A stretch of DNA of 64,000 nt from positions 354,889 to 418,888 of the forward strand of contig JAPPFP010000009.1 in assembly GCA_028877275.1 (NCBI GenBank). Reading direction: 5' to 3'. Of this stretch, positions 32,159-39,004 are shown one piece after another (position 1 is the stretch's first letter; every line of letters begins with the position of its first letter). A model generated the notes under the pieces. The model was given only the letters and a program-made list of their open reading frames with translations. It did no database searches and had not been told where the DNA came from. Source of the DNA: Acidobacteriota bacterium. Its GTDB lineage: Bacteria > Acidobacteriota > Thermoanaerobaculia > Multivoradales > Multivoraceae. The position numbers and the translations under genes are program-made.

Positions 32159-33307
32159 CTACCCGTGCGGCGTCACGAGGTACTTCTCGCCGGTCGCCTG
32201 CTTCGCGTAGACCGCGATGGACGCCGGGTCGAGAGCCTGCCGCAGGGTGATCGTCTTCGCGTAGCTCGACGCGAACGTCGTCGTGATCTCGGCGGCGACC
32301 CGCTTGCGGAGGCGTTCCGAGGCCTCGTAGCCGATGCGGCGCAGGAAGTGGGGCAGCAGCCAGCCGCCCAGGCCCCAGGCCATGCCGAAGTTGCGGGTCA
32401 GGACGGTCTGTCTGCGGTCGAGTCCGCCGTAGATGTAGACCTGCTTGAGTGTCGCCGAGCCGTAGCGGCTGTACTCGGGAGCGTTGGCGGAGAGCGCCGC
32501 CTCCATCGCGGTCAGGATCTGGCCGGCCAGCACACCGCCGCCGGTGGCGTCGAAGCCGAGCGTGGCAGAGGTCGCCGCGAGGGCGGCAATCAGGTCGGCC
32601 ATGAAGGTCTCGGAACTCGAGTTCACGACGTGGGTGGCGCCGATGCCGCGCAGGAGTTCCTCGTGTTCCTGCCGGCGGACGACGTTGACCAGCGGCACGC
32701 CGTCCGCGGTGCAGATCTTCTGGAGCATCTGGCCGAGGTTGGAGGCGGCGGCGGTGTGGACCAGGGCGGTGTGGCCCTCGAGGCGCATCGTTTCGACCAT
32801 GCCCAGGGCGGTCAGCGGGTTGACGAAGCAGGAGGCTCCTTCCGCGGGTGTCGTGCCCTCGGGCAGCGACAGGCACTGCCGGGCCTCGGCCAGCCGGTAC
32901 TCCGCGTACATCGAGCCGCCGAGGACGGCAACCGTGCGGCCGATCAGGGCCTGGGCGGCCGGCGACGAGCCGGCGGCGACGACGACGCCGGCGCCCTCGT
33001 TGCCGGTCGGTATTGCCTGGTCGAGACGACCGGCCACCAGCCGCGCCAGTCCCTTGGGGAGGTCGGCGACTACGACCGGGCCGTGCTCGCCGTTCGAGGC
33101 GCGGACCGTGGAGACGTCGGCCGGACCGAACAGCACGCCCAGGTCGGACGGGTTGATCGGCGACGCCTCGACGCGGATCACGACCTGGTCCGGTCCGGGT
33201 TCGGGTACCGGGACCCTGATCAGCGCCAGTTCGACGGTGCCGCCGCCGCTATCGTCGGCGCGGATCGTGGAGTGGAGTGTCAGGCCATCGGCGGGAAGTT
33301 CGGTCAT
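32159..33307 (-). CDS. MDR-superfamily oxidoreductase (quinone-oxidoreductase/alcohol-dehydrogenase-like)
   Basis: GroES-like N-domain plus Rossmann domain pattern. Confidence 0.75.
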   Translation of the reverse strand: MTELPADGLTLHSTIRADDSGGGTVELALIRVPVPEPGPDQVVIRVEASPINPSDLGVLFGPADVSTVRASNGEHGPVVVADLPKGLARLVAGRLDQAIPTGNEGAGVVVAAGSSPAAQALIGRTVAVLGGSMYAEYRLAEARQCLSLPEGTTPAEGASCFVNPLTALGMVETMRLEGHTALVHTAAASNLGQMLQKICTADGVPLVNVVRRQEHEELLRGIGATHVVNSSSETFMADLIAALAATSATLGFDATGGGVLAGQILTAMEAALSANAPEYSRYGSATLKQVYIYGGLDRRQTVLTRNFGMAWGLGGWLLPHFLRRIGYEASERLRKRVAAEITTTFASSYAKTITLRQALDPASIAVYAKQATGEKYLVTPHG

Positions 33308-33402
33308 GGTCGGTTTCCGGTTGGTTGAGGTGTGAGCGGCGGCGAAGGCTATCGCGGCTCAGTCGCGCTGGACGACTATGCTCCCCGAACGGAGCCCAAC
33401 CG

Positions 33403-33939
33403 ATGACCGCGACCTACCACGCCTTCGACACGCCGATCGGCACCCTCCGCCTGGTGGGCGGAGAGGACTCGATCGATTGCATCGACTTGCCGAATCGGGC
33501 GGTGGAACCAGCGAATCCGGCCTGGAAGCCCTCGAGTGAGGTGCTTCCGGCCGCGCTGGCGGAAGCGAAACGGCAGCTCGAGGAGTACTTCGCCGGCGAG
33601 CGGCAGGACTTCGACCTGCCGCTCTCTCCCCACGGCACAGCGTTCCAGCGCCGCGTCTGGACCGAACTGCGGCGCATCCCGTTTGGCGAGACGATCTCCT
33701 ACGGGGAACTCGCGGCGCGGATCGGCAAGCCGTCGGCCTCGAGGGCCGTTGGCGCCGCGAACGGCCGCAACCCGCTGCCGGTCGTCGTGCCCTGCCATCG
33801 GGTGATCGGCAGCGACGGCCGACTGACCGGCTTCGGCGGCGGTCTGCCAACGAAGCAGGCGTTGCTGGACCTGGAACGGCGGGTGGCCGGAAGGCAGCTA
33901 CTCCTTGCGCCGGTGCTAAGCTCGCGCGCGACTTCGTAG
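33403..33939 (+). CDS. ogt: Methylated-DNA--protein-cysteine methyltransferase
   Basis: PCHRVIG active-site motif and HTH region FQRRVWTELRRIPFGETISYGELA. Confidence 0.85.
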   Translation: MTATYHAFDTPIGTLRLVGGEDSIDCIDLPNRAVEPANPAWKPSSEVLPAALAEAKRQLEEYFAGERQDFDLPLSPHGTAFQRRVWTELRRIPFGETISYGELAARIGKPSASRAVGAANGRNPLPVVVPCHRVIGSDGRLTGFGGGLPTKQALLDLERRVAGRQLLLAPVLSSRATS

Positions 33940-33956: not shown

Positions 33957-35351
33957 GTGACCTCCACCTGGAGAATCCGGATGCGCACATCTCGACACGT
34001 GTTCCCCGCGGCCACAGCCGCCCTCCTCTTCGCCGGTGCCGCCCTCGCCGCGCCGCCGGCCACGGAAAACTGGCCGGCTTTCCGCGGCCCGGATGCCATG
34101 AGCGTCGCCGACGACGACCCGCGTCTGCCGGAGTCCTGGAGCACGGAGGAGAACGTGGCCTGGGTCGTTGACGTGCCGGGTCTGGGGTGGTCTTCGCCGA
34201 TCGTGCAGGGCGATCGCGTCTACCTGACCACTGTGTGGAGCGAGGGCGAGGTCGAGGAGCCGAAGAAGGGCCTCTATCTCGGCGGAAACCGGATGCAGCC
34301 GTCGGCCGACCAGCACCACTGGTCGGTCTACTGCCTGGAGGTGGAGACCGGCGAGAAGTGCTGGGAGCGCGAGGTACTGGTCGGGGCGCCGGACTTCCCG
34401 CGCCACCTGAAGAACACCTACGCCTCGGAGACTCCGGTCACGGACGGCGAGCGGATCTACGCCTACTTCGGCAACGTCGGCGTCTTCGCCTTCACGCTGG
34501 ACGGCGAGCCGCTCTGGGAGCAGCGCTTCGAGGTCGTGCGGACGCGCTTCGGGTGGGGGACGGCGGCGTCGCCGGTCGTGCACAACGGGCAGCTCTACGT
34601 CGTGAACGACAACGAGGACCAGTCCTTCCTGATGGCCCTCGACGCGGCGACCGGCGAGGAACTGTGGCGCGACGCTCGGGAGGAGGGGAGCAACTGGGCG
34701 ACCCCCTTCGTGTGGGAGAACGAACTCCGGACGGAGGTGATTACGCCGGGTACCGACCAGGTTCGCTCGTACGACGAGCAGGGCAACCTCCTGTGGCACT
34801 TCGGCGGCATGTCGTCCATCGCGATTCCGCAGCCGTTCTCGAAGTACGGCCTGCTCTACGTGTCGTCGGGCTACATCGGTGACCAGGTCCGCCCGGTGTA
34901 CGCGATCAAGCCGGGCGCCGAAGGCGACATCACGCTGGAGAAGGACCAGCAGAGCAACCGCTGGGTGGTTTGGTACCAGCCCCAGGCCGGCGCCTACAAC
35001 CCGACGCCGCTGATCTACCGCGACCGCTTCTACACCCTGCTCGACCGGGGCTTCTTCACCGCGCACGATCCGAAGACGGGCGCCGAGGTCTACGGCAAGC
35101 AGCGGATCGAACGCGGATCGGGCGCCTTCACGGCGTCGCCCTGGGCCTACAACGGCAAGGTCTTCGTTCTCAGCGAGGACGGCGACACGTTCGTGATCGA
35201 GGCCGGCGACGAGTTCAAGGTCGTCGGCAAGAACTCGCTCGACGAGATGGCGATGTCGACGCCGGCGATCGCCGACGGCAGCCTCTACATCCGTACCCGG
35301 AGCAAGCTGTACCGGATCACGAATCAGGCGGGCGGCGCGAGCGGACCCTGA
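33957..35351 (+). CDS. Secreted PQQ-like beta-propeller repeat protein
   Basis: Signal peptide, then repeated W/Y-rich beta-propeller blades (RVYLTT, GERIYAYFG, GQLYVVNDN, GLLYVSSG, DGSLYIRT). Confidence 0.7.
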   Translation: MTSTWRIRMRTSRHVFPAATAALLFAGAALAAPPATENWPAFRGPDAMSVADDDPRLPESWSTEENVAWVVDVPGLGWSSPIVQGDRVYLTTVWSEGEVEEPKKGLYLGGNRMQPSADQHHWSVYCLEVETGEKCWEREVLVGAPDFPRHLKNTYASETPVTDGERIYAYFGNVGVFAFTLDGEPLWEQRFEVVRTRFGWGTAASPVVHNGQLYVVNDNEDQSFLMALDAATGEELWRDAREEGSNWATPFVWENELRTEVITPGTDQVRSYDEQGNLLWHFGGMSSIAIPQPFSKYGLLYVSSGYIGDQVRPVYAIKPGAEGDITLEKDQQSNRWVVWYQPQAGAYNPTPLIYRDRFYTLLDRGFFTAHDPKTGAEVYGKQRIERGSGAFTASPWAYNGKVFVLSEDGDTFVIEAGDEFKVVGKNSLDEMAMSTPAIADGSLYIRTRSKLYRITNQAGGASGP

Positions 35352-36556
35352 ACGCCGGGGCTGTCGCGGCCGCGCTTTGGTTCGGCCTGACGGCGCTCGC
35401 CCAGTCCGCTGCCGCGGTCGACTTCGACGCGGTAGCGGAGGTGTTCCGGAGCCGCTGCTCCGGTTGTCACACGGAGGGCGGTCCGGCGCCGTTCGCGCTG
35501 CGGACGTTCGAGCAGGCGCGCGCCTGGTCGTCCTCGATCCGCCGGGCGGTCACCTCGGGAGCGATGCCTCCATGGCACGCCGACCCGCGTTACGGCGAGT
35601 TCGCGAACGACCGGCGTCTGCCGGCGTCGGAGAAAGCGAAGCTGCTGGCCTGGATCGATGGCGGCAGCCTGCCCGGGTCTTCTTCGCTTGAGGCAGCGCC
35701 GGAAGAACGGCCCGCATCCTCCCGGAGAATCGACTGGAGCATCGGTGTTCCCGATCTCGTCTTCGAACTGCCGGAAGACGTGACGGTACCCGCGGCCGGT
35801 GACGTTCCGTACCACGGCTACCGCGTGGAAACGGGTCTGACCGAGGACGTGTGGATCCAGGCGGCGGAGACGAAGCCGGGCAACCCGGCCGTGGTCCATC
35901 ACGTCATCGTGCAGGCGTTCCGGGGAGCCGGCGCCGTCCGGGAGAGCCCCGGCGGCGATCCGCGCACGGCGGGGGATCTCGGCGGTTACGCGCCGGGCAC
36001 CGGACCCCTGGTCATGCCACCGGGGGTCGGCCGCCGGCTTCCGGCCGGCGCCGTGCTCGACTTCCAGATGCACTACACGCCGACGGGAAGGGAGGAGACG
36101 GACCGGAGCCGGATCGGCCTGATCCTGGCGGCCGAGCCGCCTCGCCACGAGTCCCTCACGGCGCTCTGCTCGACGCCCTTCCTGTGGATTCCGGCGGGCG
36201 AGCGGGACATCCGGTTCGAGGCCGACCTGACCTTCCCGCGCGCCGCCCGCCTGCTGTCGCTCAGGCCGCACATGCACCTGCGGGGCGACACGTTCGAGTT
36301 CCGGGCGGAGTACCCGGACGGACGCTCCGAGATTCTGCTCCTGGTCACCGGCTACGACTTCAACTGGCAGACGACCTACCGGTTCGCCGAGCCCAGGCTG
36401 CTTCCTGCCGGCACACGGCTTCGCTGCACGGCGACCTACAACAACAGCGACGCCAATCCACAGAACCCCGATCCCACCCGGGACGTCTCCTGGGGACGCG
36501 AGACGACGGACGAGATGATGATCGGGTTCGTCGACTACTACGAGGTGGGGGACTAG
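35348..36556 (+). CDS. Secreted c-type heme (CxxCH) plus copper type-II monooxygenase-like domain fusion protein. Start uncertain: CTG 35348 or GTG 35441.
   Basis: CSGCH heme-binding motif and MPPW. Downstream HH...H...HMH...M pattern (VVHHVIV, QMHYTP, RPHMHLRGD, DEMMIGF) resembles PHM/DBH copper sites. Signal-like AVAAALWFGLTALAQSAAA lies upstream of the first canonical start. Confidence 0.5.
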   Translation: MNAGAVAAALWFGLTALAQSAAAVDFDAVAEVFRSRCSGCHTEGGPAPFALRTFEQARAWSSSIRRAVTSGAMPPWHADPRYGEFANDRRLPASEKAKLLAWIDGGSLPGSSSLEAAPEERPASSRRIDWSIGVPDLVFELPEDVTVPAAGDVPYHGYRVETGLTEDVWIQAAETKPGNPAVVHHVIVQAFRGAGAVRESPGGDPRTAGDLGGYAPGTGPLVMPPGVGRRLPAGAVLDFQMHYTPTGREETDRSRIGLILAAEPPRHESLTALCSTPFLWIPAGERDIRFEADLTFPRAARLLSLRPHMHLRGDTFEFRAEYPDGRSEILLLVTGYDFNWQTTYRFAEPRLLPAGTRLRCTATYNNSDANPQNPDPTRDVSWGRETTDEMMIGFVDYYEVGD

Positions 36557-36574: not shown

Positions 36575-37822
36575 CTAGGCGGGGCTCCATTCGCCGCGAG
36601 CGACGGCGGGCACGAACTCGTCGAGACCTTGGGGCGGGTAGTCGACGGCCCGGCCGAGTTCGGCGCTCATGTAGGCGGCCATCAGCAGGCGGGTGACCTC
36701 CAGGCCGTCCTCGAAGGTCTCCCGCGGTCGCTCCCCGCGCCGGAAGCTCGCCACCATGTGCCGATTCTCGGCGTCGTAGCCGTAGGCGGCCGGCTCGTTC
36801 GGAAGCACCGGCATGAGGCCCATCTCGGCGTTCTGCTTCTCGACCAGATCCTCGCCGCTGTACTGCTCGAGGTCACGACTGAAGAAGAGTTCGAGCTCCG
36901 TGTCGAGGCTGTTGGCCCGCATCGAGTACTCCGGCCCCAGCAGCTCCATCGACAGACGCAGGCCGGCGCCGACGTAGCTCCACGAGGTTGTCGCCTCGAC
37001 CACCAGCGGCGTGCCGTTCTCGTCTTCGTACTCCACCATCGCCCGGGCGAAGTCCTCGGCCGGTCGCTGCTCATAGTCGACGGCCTCTCCGTACTCGTCG
37101 CGCAGCTTGCGGGCGTACTCGGGACGCTGCCACTTGAGGCAGTGGATCTGGGCGTGGACGCGCTTCGGGGTCAGGCTGCTGCGCGGCTTGCCGGGTTCGG
37201 TGAGCAGGAAGCGCGCCGCCTCGACCGAGTGGCACATCATGTCGTTCAGCACCCCGCCGCCCTGGAGTTCGCCCTGCCAGAACCAGGCGTTGTGCGGGCC
37301 GGAGTGTTCCTCGGCGGCACGGGCCAGGTACGGGCGGCCGGCTGCCCGGGCGCCGCGCTCCCATGCCAGCTCGCGGCCTCTGACGACCGCCGGGCTGAAC
37401 ACCTGGTTCTCGAGGTAGCCGTCGAGTACGCCGATCTCGTTCGCGAGCTCGACCATTCGCCTCGCTTCGCCCGCGTTGCGGGCAAGCGGCTTCTCGCAGG
37501 CGATGCCGACCAGGCGGCCGCGGCCACTGGCGACGGCCTCGGCGATCTCCTCCATGTTGGCGATCCGGCGGTCGTTGCGGCCGCAGATCCAGATCGCGTC
37601 GATGGCGTCGTCGGCGACCATCGCCGCGATCGACTCGTAGGCCCCGGCGCCGCCGACGTCCAGCTCGGTGGCCAGAGCCGCCGCGGACTCGGCGCTTTCG
37701 CGGTTCGGGCTCCACACCCCCCGTACATCGGCGCCGCGGACGGCGGTCCAGGAACGGATGTGGAAGCGGGTGATGAAGCCGCTGCCGACGAAACCGATGC
37801 CGAGAGTTCGCTGGGCAGGCAC
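36575..37822 (-). CDS. Gfo/Idh/MocA family oxidoreductase
   Basis: N-terminal Rossmann GFVGSGFITRFH and a C-terminal alpha/beta domain. Confidence 0.8.
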   Translation of the reverse strand: MPAQRTLGIGFVGSGFITRFHIRSWTAVRGADVRGVWSPNRESAESAAALATELDVGGAGAYESIAAMVADDAIDAIWICGRNDRRIANMEEIAEAVASGRGRLVGIACEKPLARNAGEARRMVELANEIGVLDGYLENQVFSPAVVRGRELAWERGARAAGRPYLARAAEEHSGPHNAWFWQGELQGGGVLNDMMCHSVEAARFLLTEPGKPRSSLTPKRVHAQIHCLKWQRPEYARKLRDEYGEAVDYEQRPAEDFARAMVEYEDENGTPLVVEATTSWSYVGAGLRLSMELLGPEYSMRANSLDTELELFFSRDLEQYSGEDLVEKQNAEMGLMPVLPNEPAAYGYDAENRHMVASFRRGERPRETFEDGLEVTRLLMAAYMSAELGRAVDYPPQGLDEFVPAVARGEWSPA

Positions 37823-37835
37823 CGCGTGTGCGGCC

Positions 37836-38243
37836 TCAGCTGGCCGCCTCCTTCAGCTCCTTCGCCTTCGCGATCCAGCGTTCCACCATCGGCACCGACG
37901 GCGCGCGGCGGCTCAGCTTCTTCTTCGCGTTGACGGCGCTCACCTTGAGCGCGAGGTTCAGGGGCCGGCGGCGGCTCAGGTCGCGTACGGTGCTGACCCC
38001 CGAGGCGACGAGCAGTTCCGCGAAGTCCCCGCCGACGCCGCGAATGCGCATCAGGTCCGCCCGGTTGACGAACCTCTGGATCTGGCGCTCGGGCAGTCCG
38101 GTGCGTTCCGACAGGAGTCGGCGCTCGCGGCGGTCGCGGCAGGCGGCGAGGAGACCGTCCGTGGTTCGGATTCCGGCCTTCGCCAGCTTGGCGGCAACTG
38201 CGGGACCGACGCCTCCGATCTTCCGGACGCCGTAGGGCATCAA
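37836..38243 (-). CDS. DUF4332-like helix-hairpin-helix protein
   Basis: Two HhH-like G-I-G segments (IGGVGPAVAAKLAKAGI, IRGVGGDFAELLVASGV). Confidence 0.55.
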   Translation of the reverse strand: MMPYGVRKIGGVGPAVAAKLAKAGIRTTDGLLAACRDRRERRLLSERTGLPERQIQRFVNRADLMRIRGVGGDFAELLVASGVSTVRDLSRRRPLNLALKVSAVNAKKKLSRRAPSVPMVERWIAKAKELKEAAS

Positions 38244-38272
38244 CCTACGGAGTGGAAGGGCGTCGTCGTCAC

Positions 38273-39004
38273 TTACTCGCTGCCTTCGAAGGTGAGGTTC
38301 AGACCCTCGACGTCGGCGGTGACTTCGACTTCAAGGATCTGTTCGCCGAGCTTCTCGTGCCAGAACACCAGTTCGTAGGAGCCGGCGGGAAGCGCGTCGA
38401 TGCGGTACTTGCCGTCGCTGCCGGTAGTCGAGTGGAACGAGTGTTCCATGACGAAGACATAGGCGGACATCCAGGGATGGACGTCGCACTTCACCTGAAT
38501 CGGCTTTTCGGGCGCCCTGAAGGACTTGATCCTCGTGCCGCGCGCGGGCTGGCCGATGTTGAACGGGCGGTTCGCCTTGGCCAGGGCGCGGACGTTGTGC
38601 AGAGTCGGGTCGTCGTTGACGATCTCGATGTCCTGTTCCACGCGGACGCCGATGATCCGCGGCGTGTAGAGGCAGCCACGCTGCTCCAGCCGGACGGTTT
38701 CCTCGGGCGTGTCGCCGGCGGCGCCTTCGGGCGCCTCCCGCAGATAGACGAAGACGTTCCGGACCGCGCCGTCGTCGCCGACCAGGCTGTCGCGCGAGAG
38801 GACGCGCTTCCCTTCGTACATCGCGGCGCAGTTCGGGTCGGCGTCCATGCGCAGCGGGTAGCGCTTGAGCGGTTCGCCCTCGTAGGTGACCGTGCCGCTG
38901 ATGCTGAAGTCCGCGGCGGCGGCACTGCCGGAGACCAGGAGAGCCGCGGCCAGCGCCCAGGCGGCGATGGCTGGGCCTGAGCGGCGGGCGCGCAGGTGGA
39001 GCAT
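38273..39004 (-). CDS. Secreted carboxypeptidase-regulatory-like / cupredoxin-like protein with a putative type-1 copper site
   Basis: Signal peptide, then a SGTVTYEGEPL Ig-like block. A C-terminal H ... C-D-V-H-P-W-M arrangement matches the cupredoxin ligand spacing. Confidence 0.55.
   Translation of the reverse strand: MLHLRARRSGPAIAAWALAAALLVSGSAAAADFSISGTVTYEGEPLKRYPLRMDADPNCAAMYEGKRVLSRDSLVGDDGAVRNVFVYLREAPEGAAGDTPEETVRLEQRGCLYTPRIIGVRVEQDIEIVNDDPTLHNVRALAKANRPFNIGQPARGTRIKSFRAPEKPIQVKCDVHPWMSAYVFVMEHSFHSTTGSDGKYRIDALPAGSYELVFWHEKLGEQILEVEVTADVEGLNLTFEGSE

Follow-up and report, generated by a model that had tools for sequence, protein, structure and literature searches.

A predicted heme c and PHM/DBH-like copper protein without a canonical start codon, encoded behind a beta-propeller gene in an uncultured Acidobacterium

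Introduction

How can a gene be translated when no ATG, GTG or TTG codon precedes its export signal, and what would such a gene encode? These questions are raised by a two-gene operon on the + strand of contig JAPPFP010000009.1, from an uncultured sponge-type Acidobacterium, within the 64,000-nucleotide stretch of DNA that was analysed (hereafter, the window). The first gene, ORF1, encodes a beta-propeller protein, and the second, ORF2, a cytochrome-like protein whose reading frame is open from far upstream to a TAG at 36554-36556. ORF1 ends with a TGA at 35349-35351; the CTG at 35348-35350 shares its TG with this stop codon and lies in frame with ORF2. An earlier note on this DNA had described the overlap, the motifs and coordinates of both reading frames, and a signal-peptide-like leader upstream of the first canonical start (GTG 35441), all of which agree with the present analysis. 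To account for the arrangement, it had offered a CTG start, coupled reinitiation or an indel. The explanation that best fits the evidence, and in which we place moderate confidence as a whole, is that of a two-gene periplasmic module whose second member would be a heme c plus two-copper enzyme started at CTG.

Evidence for a heme c domain and a copper core in ORF2

The enzymes of the PHM/DBH type, peptidylglycine alpha-hydroxylating monooxygenase and dopamine beta-hydroxylase, are non-coupled binuclear copper monooxygenases (PF01082/PF03712) and are regarded as essentially eukaryotic and ascorbate-dependent. PHM in particular has been described as widespread in eukaryotes (PMC8812541). That ORF2 joins a heme c domain to a copper core of this type was proposed in the earlier note, and the proposal has been strengthened by fold comparison, profile alignment and residue conservation. 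An AlphaFold2 (AF2) model computed with 35 homologues (predicted local distance difference test, pLDDT, 83.9) begins with a helical domain, which a disordered linker joins to two beta-sandwich domains. When this model was compared with the PDB using Foldseek, ranks 1-31 were all PHM or DBH (E 8e-12 to 4e-9, 281-305 aligned columns), the best being PHM 3mll (E 8e-12) and DBH 4zel (E 2e-11); the matches that followed, at E 1e-6 or weaker, were other double-jelly-roll proteins, including capsid proteins and DUF2961. The model therefore has the two-jelly-roll fold of the PHM/DBH enzymes.

The residues expected of both cofactor types are also in place. A profile of the core matched human DBH (4zel, E 4.8e-4), with vvHH, lHY and PHmH of the family aligned with LVHH, VHY and LHTH of the enzyme; in this way five of the six copper ligands align to DBH, namely the His-His pair H184 and H185 with the third histidine H242, as expected for a CuH site, and the HxH pair H308 and H310, which falls on LHTH. 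The heme c motif CSGCH (residues 37-41) is accompanied by a distal methionine, M73. Across 35 sequences, down to 44% identity, C37, C40, H41, M73, H184, H185, H242, H308, H310 and M390 are invariant, among them all six copper-ligand positions, and so is H77 (in MPPWH). The spacing of the ligands, 57, 66 and 80 residues, resembles that in PHM (64, 70 and 70), and a T-x-D-E-M motif, within TTDEMM, lies at the putative methionine ligand. Alongside these resemblances (two jelly rolls, HH...H for CuH, an HxH...M pattern like that of CuM), there are clear differences: identity to ORF2 is only 14-20%, ORF2 is bacterial and predicted to be periplasmic, and it has neither the DOMON domain of DBH nor the PAL domain of PAM. 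To our knowledge, an N-terminal c-type cytochrome domain occurs in no characterised PHM/DBH member.

Several results pull in the opposite direction. Pfam matches to the cytochrome c and Cu2_monooxygenase families were present, all of them below the gathering cut-offs: Cytochrome_CBB3 reached E 7e-6 (26.6 bits versus a cut-off of 27) and Cu2_monoox_C (PF03712) E 1e-3 over residues 301-399 (19.0 bits versus 23), while PF01082 was not reported in this search. The sixth ligand, M390, lies beyond the DBH alignment, invariant as it is and inside the Cu2_monoox_C match. A profile of the C-terminal domain alone found no match in the PDB, and a profile of the whole protein found no PHM there. Taken with the fold and the conserved ligands, the model-based evidence nevertheless supports ORF2 as a heme c domain joined to a PHM/DBH-like two-copper domain.

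If this is correct, the mature protein would consist of a c-type cytochrome domain, a flexible linker and a catalytic core with two separate copper sites. CuH would be formed by H184, H185 and H242, and CuM by H308, H310 and M390, to judge from the ligand pattern. Single electrons may reach CuH from the covalently bound heme, in place of ascorbate, and CuM would activate O2 and oxidise a periplasmic substrate.

In close relatives (P0009, P0010, P0018, P0025, P0027 and P0028), long low-complexity insertions rich in Ala, Ser, Pro and Gly, of very variable length, occur at two places: the linker that separates the cytochrome from the copper domains, and a loop after HH.

A widespread bacterial family

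The pairing of heme c with such a copper core had been called uncommon, a view that did not survive a wider survey. Among 8,000 candidates scored, more than 3,770 were significant matches to ORF2, and at least 575 matches were confirmed in GTDB species genomes, spread over Planctomycetota, Acidobacteriota, Verrucomicrobiota, Armatimonadota and Nitrospirales. Many relatives are longer than ORF2: proteins of about 580-650 aa, mainly from Planctomycetota and named 'peroxiredoxin' or 'thiol-disulfide isomerase', combine AhpC/TSA, cytochrome c and Cu2_monoox_C, share 42-50% identity with ORF2 over the cytochrome and copper domains, and keep the same invariant residues. These long forms possess a thioredoxin-fold domain, whereas ORF2 lacks that domain and is paired with a propeller gene instead.

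The long forms also bear on how ORF2 is recorded in public databases. In the NCBI annotation (MDE2924054.1), ORF2 is a protein of 371 aa named 'alkyl hydroperoxide reductase' and begun at GTG 35441. No AhpC/TSA or Redoxin domain was found in ORF2 with Pfam or NCBIfam at E values up to 1; the name is therefore unfounded, and it appears to have been carried over from the long-form relatives. The public entry is thus both misnamed and truncated, with the export signal removed. A second entry, MDE3265016.1, is likewise named 'alkyl hydroperoxide reductase' and begun at an internal GTG (371 aa).

ORF2 belongs to a widespread bacterial branch of the PHM/DBH fold that carries its own c-type heme and is apparently uncharacterised. 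No description of a heme c/PHM-like bacterial family was found in the literature, in a search of incomplete coverage that makes this weak evidence. A large bacterial family with two coppers and a c-type heme would be well suited to study of the electron route to CuH and then to CuM, and would hint at unrecognised periplasmic oxidation chemistry in Planctomycetota and Acidobacteriota.

What the core does is a separate matter from what it resembles. It may not be a monooxygenase at all, acting rather as a copper oxidase, a peroxidase, an electron-transfer module in peroxide or thiol defence, or a metal-free binder similar to PNGase F. In about three quarters of the GTDB loci the protein is of the long form, extended at its N-terminus by an AhpC/TSA or Redoxin domain, and this fusion hints at such a redox role. 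The PHM double-jelly-roll fold is also common to non-redox proteins (PMC8812541), some of which are seen among the weaker Foldseek matches. PHM and DBH are nonetheless the top folds by a wide margin (E 1e-11 versus 1e-6 or weaker), and the six invariant ligand positions with PHM-like spacing point to two copper sites, albeit to no particular reaction. We consider a function of this other kind unlikely, if well worth bearing in mind.

The leader upstream of the first canonical start

The missing start was analysed in a clade set made up of the syntenic loci L001-L005 and L010-L013, drawn from independent ENA, Logan and NCBI assemblies. Seven distinct sequences result, and GTDB species representatives account for four of them. 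In all seven, the CCCTGAACGC junction is present without an indel and without a canonical start, reading ...GGN CCC TGA ACG C... with CTG in the ORF2 frame. No indel occurs over the 93-nt leader in any of them, and from the CTG to codon +28/+31 they all lack an ATG, GTG or TTG. Farther upstream in the open frame, the sole canonical codon is TTG 34970 (codon -126), which was ruled out as the ORF2 start: it is CTG in L001, hence not conserved, and lies 126 codons inside ORF1.

The leader evolves as a coding sequence. Over the 31 codons before the GTG, the minimum numbers of substitutions at the first, second and third codon positions are 8, 6 and 22 (p=6e-4, binomial test of the third-position share against one third), and the first 23 codons alone give 7, 5 and 18 (p=0.0025). 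The hydrophobic core (A/V)AALW(F/L)GL(T/A)A(L/I) is kept across the clade, as is a small-x-small site, AxA, directly before VDF, where cleavage is predicted. Translated from the CTG, ORF2 would read LNAGAVAAALWFGLTALAQSAAA up to that site and VDFDAVAEVFRSRCSGCH... directly after it, the predicted mature part opening with VDFDAVAE VFRSRCSGCH; an uncleaved precursor would yield (f)MNAGAVAAALWFGLTALAQSAAAVDFDAVAEVFR. In orthologues of 73-85% identity, the eight residues VDFDAVAE, which here lie immediately upstream of GTG 35441, form part of the conserved mature protein. Comparison of orthologue N-termini, where canonical starts are available, shows that these proteins carry signal peptides of their own, ending at the same point between A and VD(F/Y); examples are MARAVAAWAAFSAFAFPAFA before VDF in P0012 and MLSGPFRRLAAWVLMAVAGSLATA before VDY in P0002.

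Selection on the remainder of the gene is equally strong in the two groups. From CxxCH onward, the ratio of nonsynonymous to synonymous substitution rates (dN/dS) is 0.175 within the clade (dS about 0.30), and in relatives with canonical starts it is also 0.175; constraint has therefore not relaxed since the start was lost. A pseudogene, or a gene under relaxed constraint, is ruled out by this value. On the substitution pattern, the 31 codons before GTG 35441 are coding. The missing start is biological, not technical. Export of ORF2 by a Sec-type signal peptide is inferred from the leader, against which it must be said that the n-region contains no basic residue.

Translation might instead begin at GTG 35441, leaving the upstream region an untranslated relic and yielding either a cytoplasmic, heme-free product or a decaying gene. 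This GTG is the first canonical start and is picked by every gene caller. Such a start is hard to reconcile with 31 upstream codons that remain free of indels and carry a significant third-position bias, with the conservation of VDFDAVAE in orthologues at 80% identity, or with a dN/dS that shows no relaxation. Moreover, covalent attachment of heme to CxxCH occurs outside the cytoplasm. Initiation at the GTG is accordingly improbable.

In the absence of a canonical start, standard gene callers and NCBI truncate ORF2, and the export signal is lost. Similar start-less genes are probably being overlooked systematically. ORF2 offers a clean natural case, in which full purifying selection is maintained across several species without an ATG, GTG or TTG start.

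Proposed initiation at CTG 35348

The sister lineages show where the start used to be. They share the CCC TGA junction with CTG in frame and have a canonical start six codons later, ATG in L006/L007 (P0007) and GTG in L009 and L014; the window clade has GCT or CCN in its place, together with a two-codon deletion. In a more distant relative, L092 (P0040), a TTG start lies in a TTGA overlap with the propeller stop (L092:4001-4004), and the -4 overlap at the propeller/ORF2 junction is thus not unique to the window clade. Within that clade, no near-cognate start codon other than CTG 35348 occurs from codon -69 to the hydrophobic core, and the CTGA at 35348-35351 that places it in NTGA (-4) geometry is conserved in all members. 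NTGA, with its overlap of -4 nt, is the commonest geometry among translationally coupled gene pairs (PMC12548453).

Most likely, ORF2 initiates at CTG 35348, coupled to the termination of ORF1; this is the best reading of the junction, drawn from its geometry and conservation. An ancestral ATG or GTG, located six codons past the end of ORF1, would have been lost in the window clade, and translation would now begin at the CTG within CTGA. Since the CTG overlaps the TGA, the initiating ribosomes would be those terminating on ORF1, and ORF2 output would be tied to ORF1 translation, probably at a low level. Such initiation is likely a rare variant of a well-known coupling arrangement. The -4 geometry is that of other NTGA-coupled pairs, as in the TTGA of L092 at this very junction (PMC12548453; PMC6728339); here, by contrast, N is C, giving CUG, which is rarely annotated as a start, and the coupling itself is deduced from geometry. 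Two observations tell against this proposal: CUG is a poor initiator in Escherichia coli, at 1-2% of the AUG level (10.1101/063800), and no clear Shine-Dalgarno sequence was found upstream of CTG 35348. Of the three explanations first offered for the locus, the CTG start and coupled reinitiation are favoured, and the indel is rejected by the seven clade sequences.

The junction could also be the site of a programmed -1 frameshift, through which the end of ORF1 would be read into a propeller-cytochrome-copper fusion, with the leader as an internal linker. The ORF2 frame is indeed the -1 frame of ORF1 and contains no stop over at least 156 upstream codons in the clade, and in L010 and L008 the sequence C CCC TGA would permit re-pairing of tRNA-Pro after a -1 slip. 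The base before CCC varies (A, G or C), however, so that re-pairing is not conserved; no X XXY YYZ heptamer is present at the junction, and no Rfam element was matched there. At such a G+C content, long open alternative frames are no surprise. In relatives, the two proteins are encoded separately, each with its own start and signal peptide, in one case with an 80-nt spacer, and the leader retains signal-peptide features that a linker would not need. A frameshift is thus very improbable. A wrong base call or an indel introduced during sequencing or assembly has a negligible chance of being the cause and is refuted by the identical, indel-free architecture of seven independent sequences from different samples, assemblers and platforms.

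Further observations were made on the junction and the 5' end of the gene. A local hairpin is predicted in the junction RNA, with CUG/UGA in a small stem (z-score -2.4), and L003 and L004 do not preserve its pairs. Upstream of the CTG, the -1 frame of ORF1 (window 34970-35347) runs without a stop for 156 to 466 codons in the clade members; for this reason a spurious ORF2 of 528 aa appears in lists of open reading frames, and the open frame is probably no more than a high-G+C effect. A second 5' allele is found in L008:1-420, P0002, P0125, P0127 and P0133, which belong to the same 90% cluster as ORF2 of the window. It has an 80-nt spacer, an ATG and a basic signal peptide (MLSGPFRRLAAWVLMAVAGS..ATA), and the first approximately 30 mature residues differ (VDYSDVADVLRLRCAGCHHAGG). 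P0125 changes from the second-allele type to the window type after about residue 55, which suggests recombination at the 5' end of the ORF2 gene. At the opposite end, L003:3908-5236 (= L013) has lost the ORF2 stop codon, giving 442 codons and an overlap of about 120 nt with the convergent Gfo/Idh/MocA gene.

The propeller protein and its pairing with ORF2

ORF1 starts more likely at ATG 33981, which is used in public records and in all orthologue calls, than at the alternative GTG 33957; from the ATG it is identical to NCBI MDE2924053.1. The protein has a signal peptide, MRTSRHVFPAATAALLFAGAALA, and no lipobox cysteine (N-terminus ...LLFAGAALAAPP). It had been described as a PQQ-type propeller, a label that holds for the repeat motif, given a match to Pfam PQQ_2 (E 1.6e-24), and fails for the quinoprotein signature: TIGR03075 scored 27 bits versus a required 480 and TIGR03074 17 versus 833, and no PQQ dehydrogenase was among the top folds. 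The AF2 model (pLDDT 79) is an 8-bladed propeller for which the best fold matches are BamB and tetrathionate hydrolase (target TM-score about 0.75), both of which have the same 8-bladed, PQQ-motif architecture. Only the fold is shared with BamB, as the equivalog model TIGR03300 scored 43 bits versus 285, and ORF1 is about 70 residues longer than BamB and lacks its lipobox cysteine. A pairing of the PAM kind, in which PHM is joined by PAL, was considered and set aside: PAL is a 6-bladed, NHL-type, Zn-dependent lyase, ORF1 has eight blades with the PQQ motif, and no PAL appeared among the top 50 fold matches of ORF1.

Conservation within the ORF1 family is high: members from Thermoanaerobaculia and Blastocatellia share 61-65% identity, and about 150 columns of the alignment (A5) are invariant. 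Many of these columns are W, H, D, E, R or N, for example in RHLKNTYASETP, NDN(E/D)DQSF and SSGY(I/V)GDQ. So many invariant columns amount to enzyme-like conservation and suggest an enzyme or a specific binder. ORF1 may itself be an enzyme: tetrathionate hydrolase, one of its closest structural counterparts, is a propeller enzyme that works without a cofactor.

That the propeller is a partner of ORF2, as the earlier note had suggested might be the case, is supported for one acidobacterial subfamily and contradicted for the rest of the ORF2 family. In L016, L017 and L090-L093, a propeller gene lies directly upstream of ORF2 (-4 to +55 nt), with ORF2 identities of 49-60%, and the flanking genes differ from those of the window. 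As the pair is kept despite different flanks in Thermoanaerobaculia-type Acidobacteriota, a functional link between ORF1 and ORF2 is plausible, limited to that group. Mere local synteny as the cause of the pairing is overturned by L016 and L090-L093, in which the pair is retained in different contexts. The wider family speaks against a general link: among 72 distant ORF2-family loci, a relative of ORF1 was nearby only in L018 and L039, and the remaining 70 of 72 rule out the propeller as a family-wide partner. ORF1 orthologues in Blastocatellia and another lineage also have unrelated neighbours. No other neighbour family recurred in more than 8 of 74 ORF2-family loci.

A more ambitious proposal combines both aspects of the locus. 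The CTGA would be a selected device and not a product of chance, and the propeller and the cytochrome/PHM-like protein would together make up an oxidative pathway, so far unrecognised, in the periplasm of sponge-associated Acidobacteria. Taken jointly, these claims are decidedly unlikely to hold. If true, obligatory low-efficiency CUG reinitiation would hold an O2-activating heme-copper enzyme that could be dangerous at a low, fixed level relative to the propeller, and ORF2 would be the first bacterial non-coupled binuclear copper monooxygenase with its own heme c wiring to the respiratory chain.

Feature coordinates and neighbouring genes

The features of the operon are collected in Table 1. 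A scan for promoters and terminators returned nothing informative.

Table 1. Features of the ORF1-ORF2 operon (window positions)
Feature	Position	Strand	Evidence
ORF1: secreted 8-bladed PQQ-repeat (BamB-like) beta-propeller, 456 aa	33981..35351	+	Pfam PQQ_2; MDE2924053.1; model
CTGA junction: proposed ORF2 CTG start overlapping the ORF1 TGA, -4 nt NTGA geometry	35348..35351	+	clade-wide; TTGA in L092
ORF2 leader, 23 codons, signal-peptide shape, (M/L)NAGAVAAALWFGLTALAQSAAA	35348..35416	+	indel-free in 7 sequences; third-position bias
GTG: first canonical ORF2 start, codon +31, choice of the public annotation	35441..35443	+	inside conserved mature sequence
c-type cytochrome domain of ORF2 (predicted)	35417..35677	+	Cytochrome_CBB3 E 7e-6; CSGCH 35456-35470; MPPWH Met 35564-35566
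Variable linker between cytochrome and copper domains, low model confidence	35678..35737	+	pLDDT <50 at residues 120-126
N-terminal jelly roll, putative CuH-type ligands H184, H185 (HH 35897-35902) and H242 (36071-36073)	35738..36142	+	Foldseek; DBH profile
C-terminal jelly roll, putative CuM-type ligands H308, H310 (HMH 36269-36277) and M390 (36515-36517; EMM 36512-36520), then TAG	36143..36556	+	Cu2_monoox_C

The surroundings of the pair are similar among the close relatives L001-L015. Upstream (window 32159-33939), there is a gene for an ADH-like protein and/or an AlkA-type glycosylase, followed by an MGMT/Ogt DNA-repair gene; downstream and convergent (window 36575-39004) are genes for a Gfo/Idh/MocA oxidoreductase, a DUF4332 protein, a CarboxypepD_reg-like protein and ribosomal protein S4. 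All of these flanking genes are missing beside the pair in L016 and L092-L093, while L090 retains the oxidoreductase and the CarboxypepD_reg-like gene nearby and L091 retains the MGMT gene.

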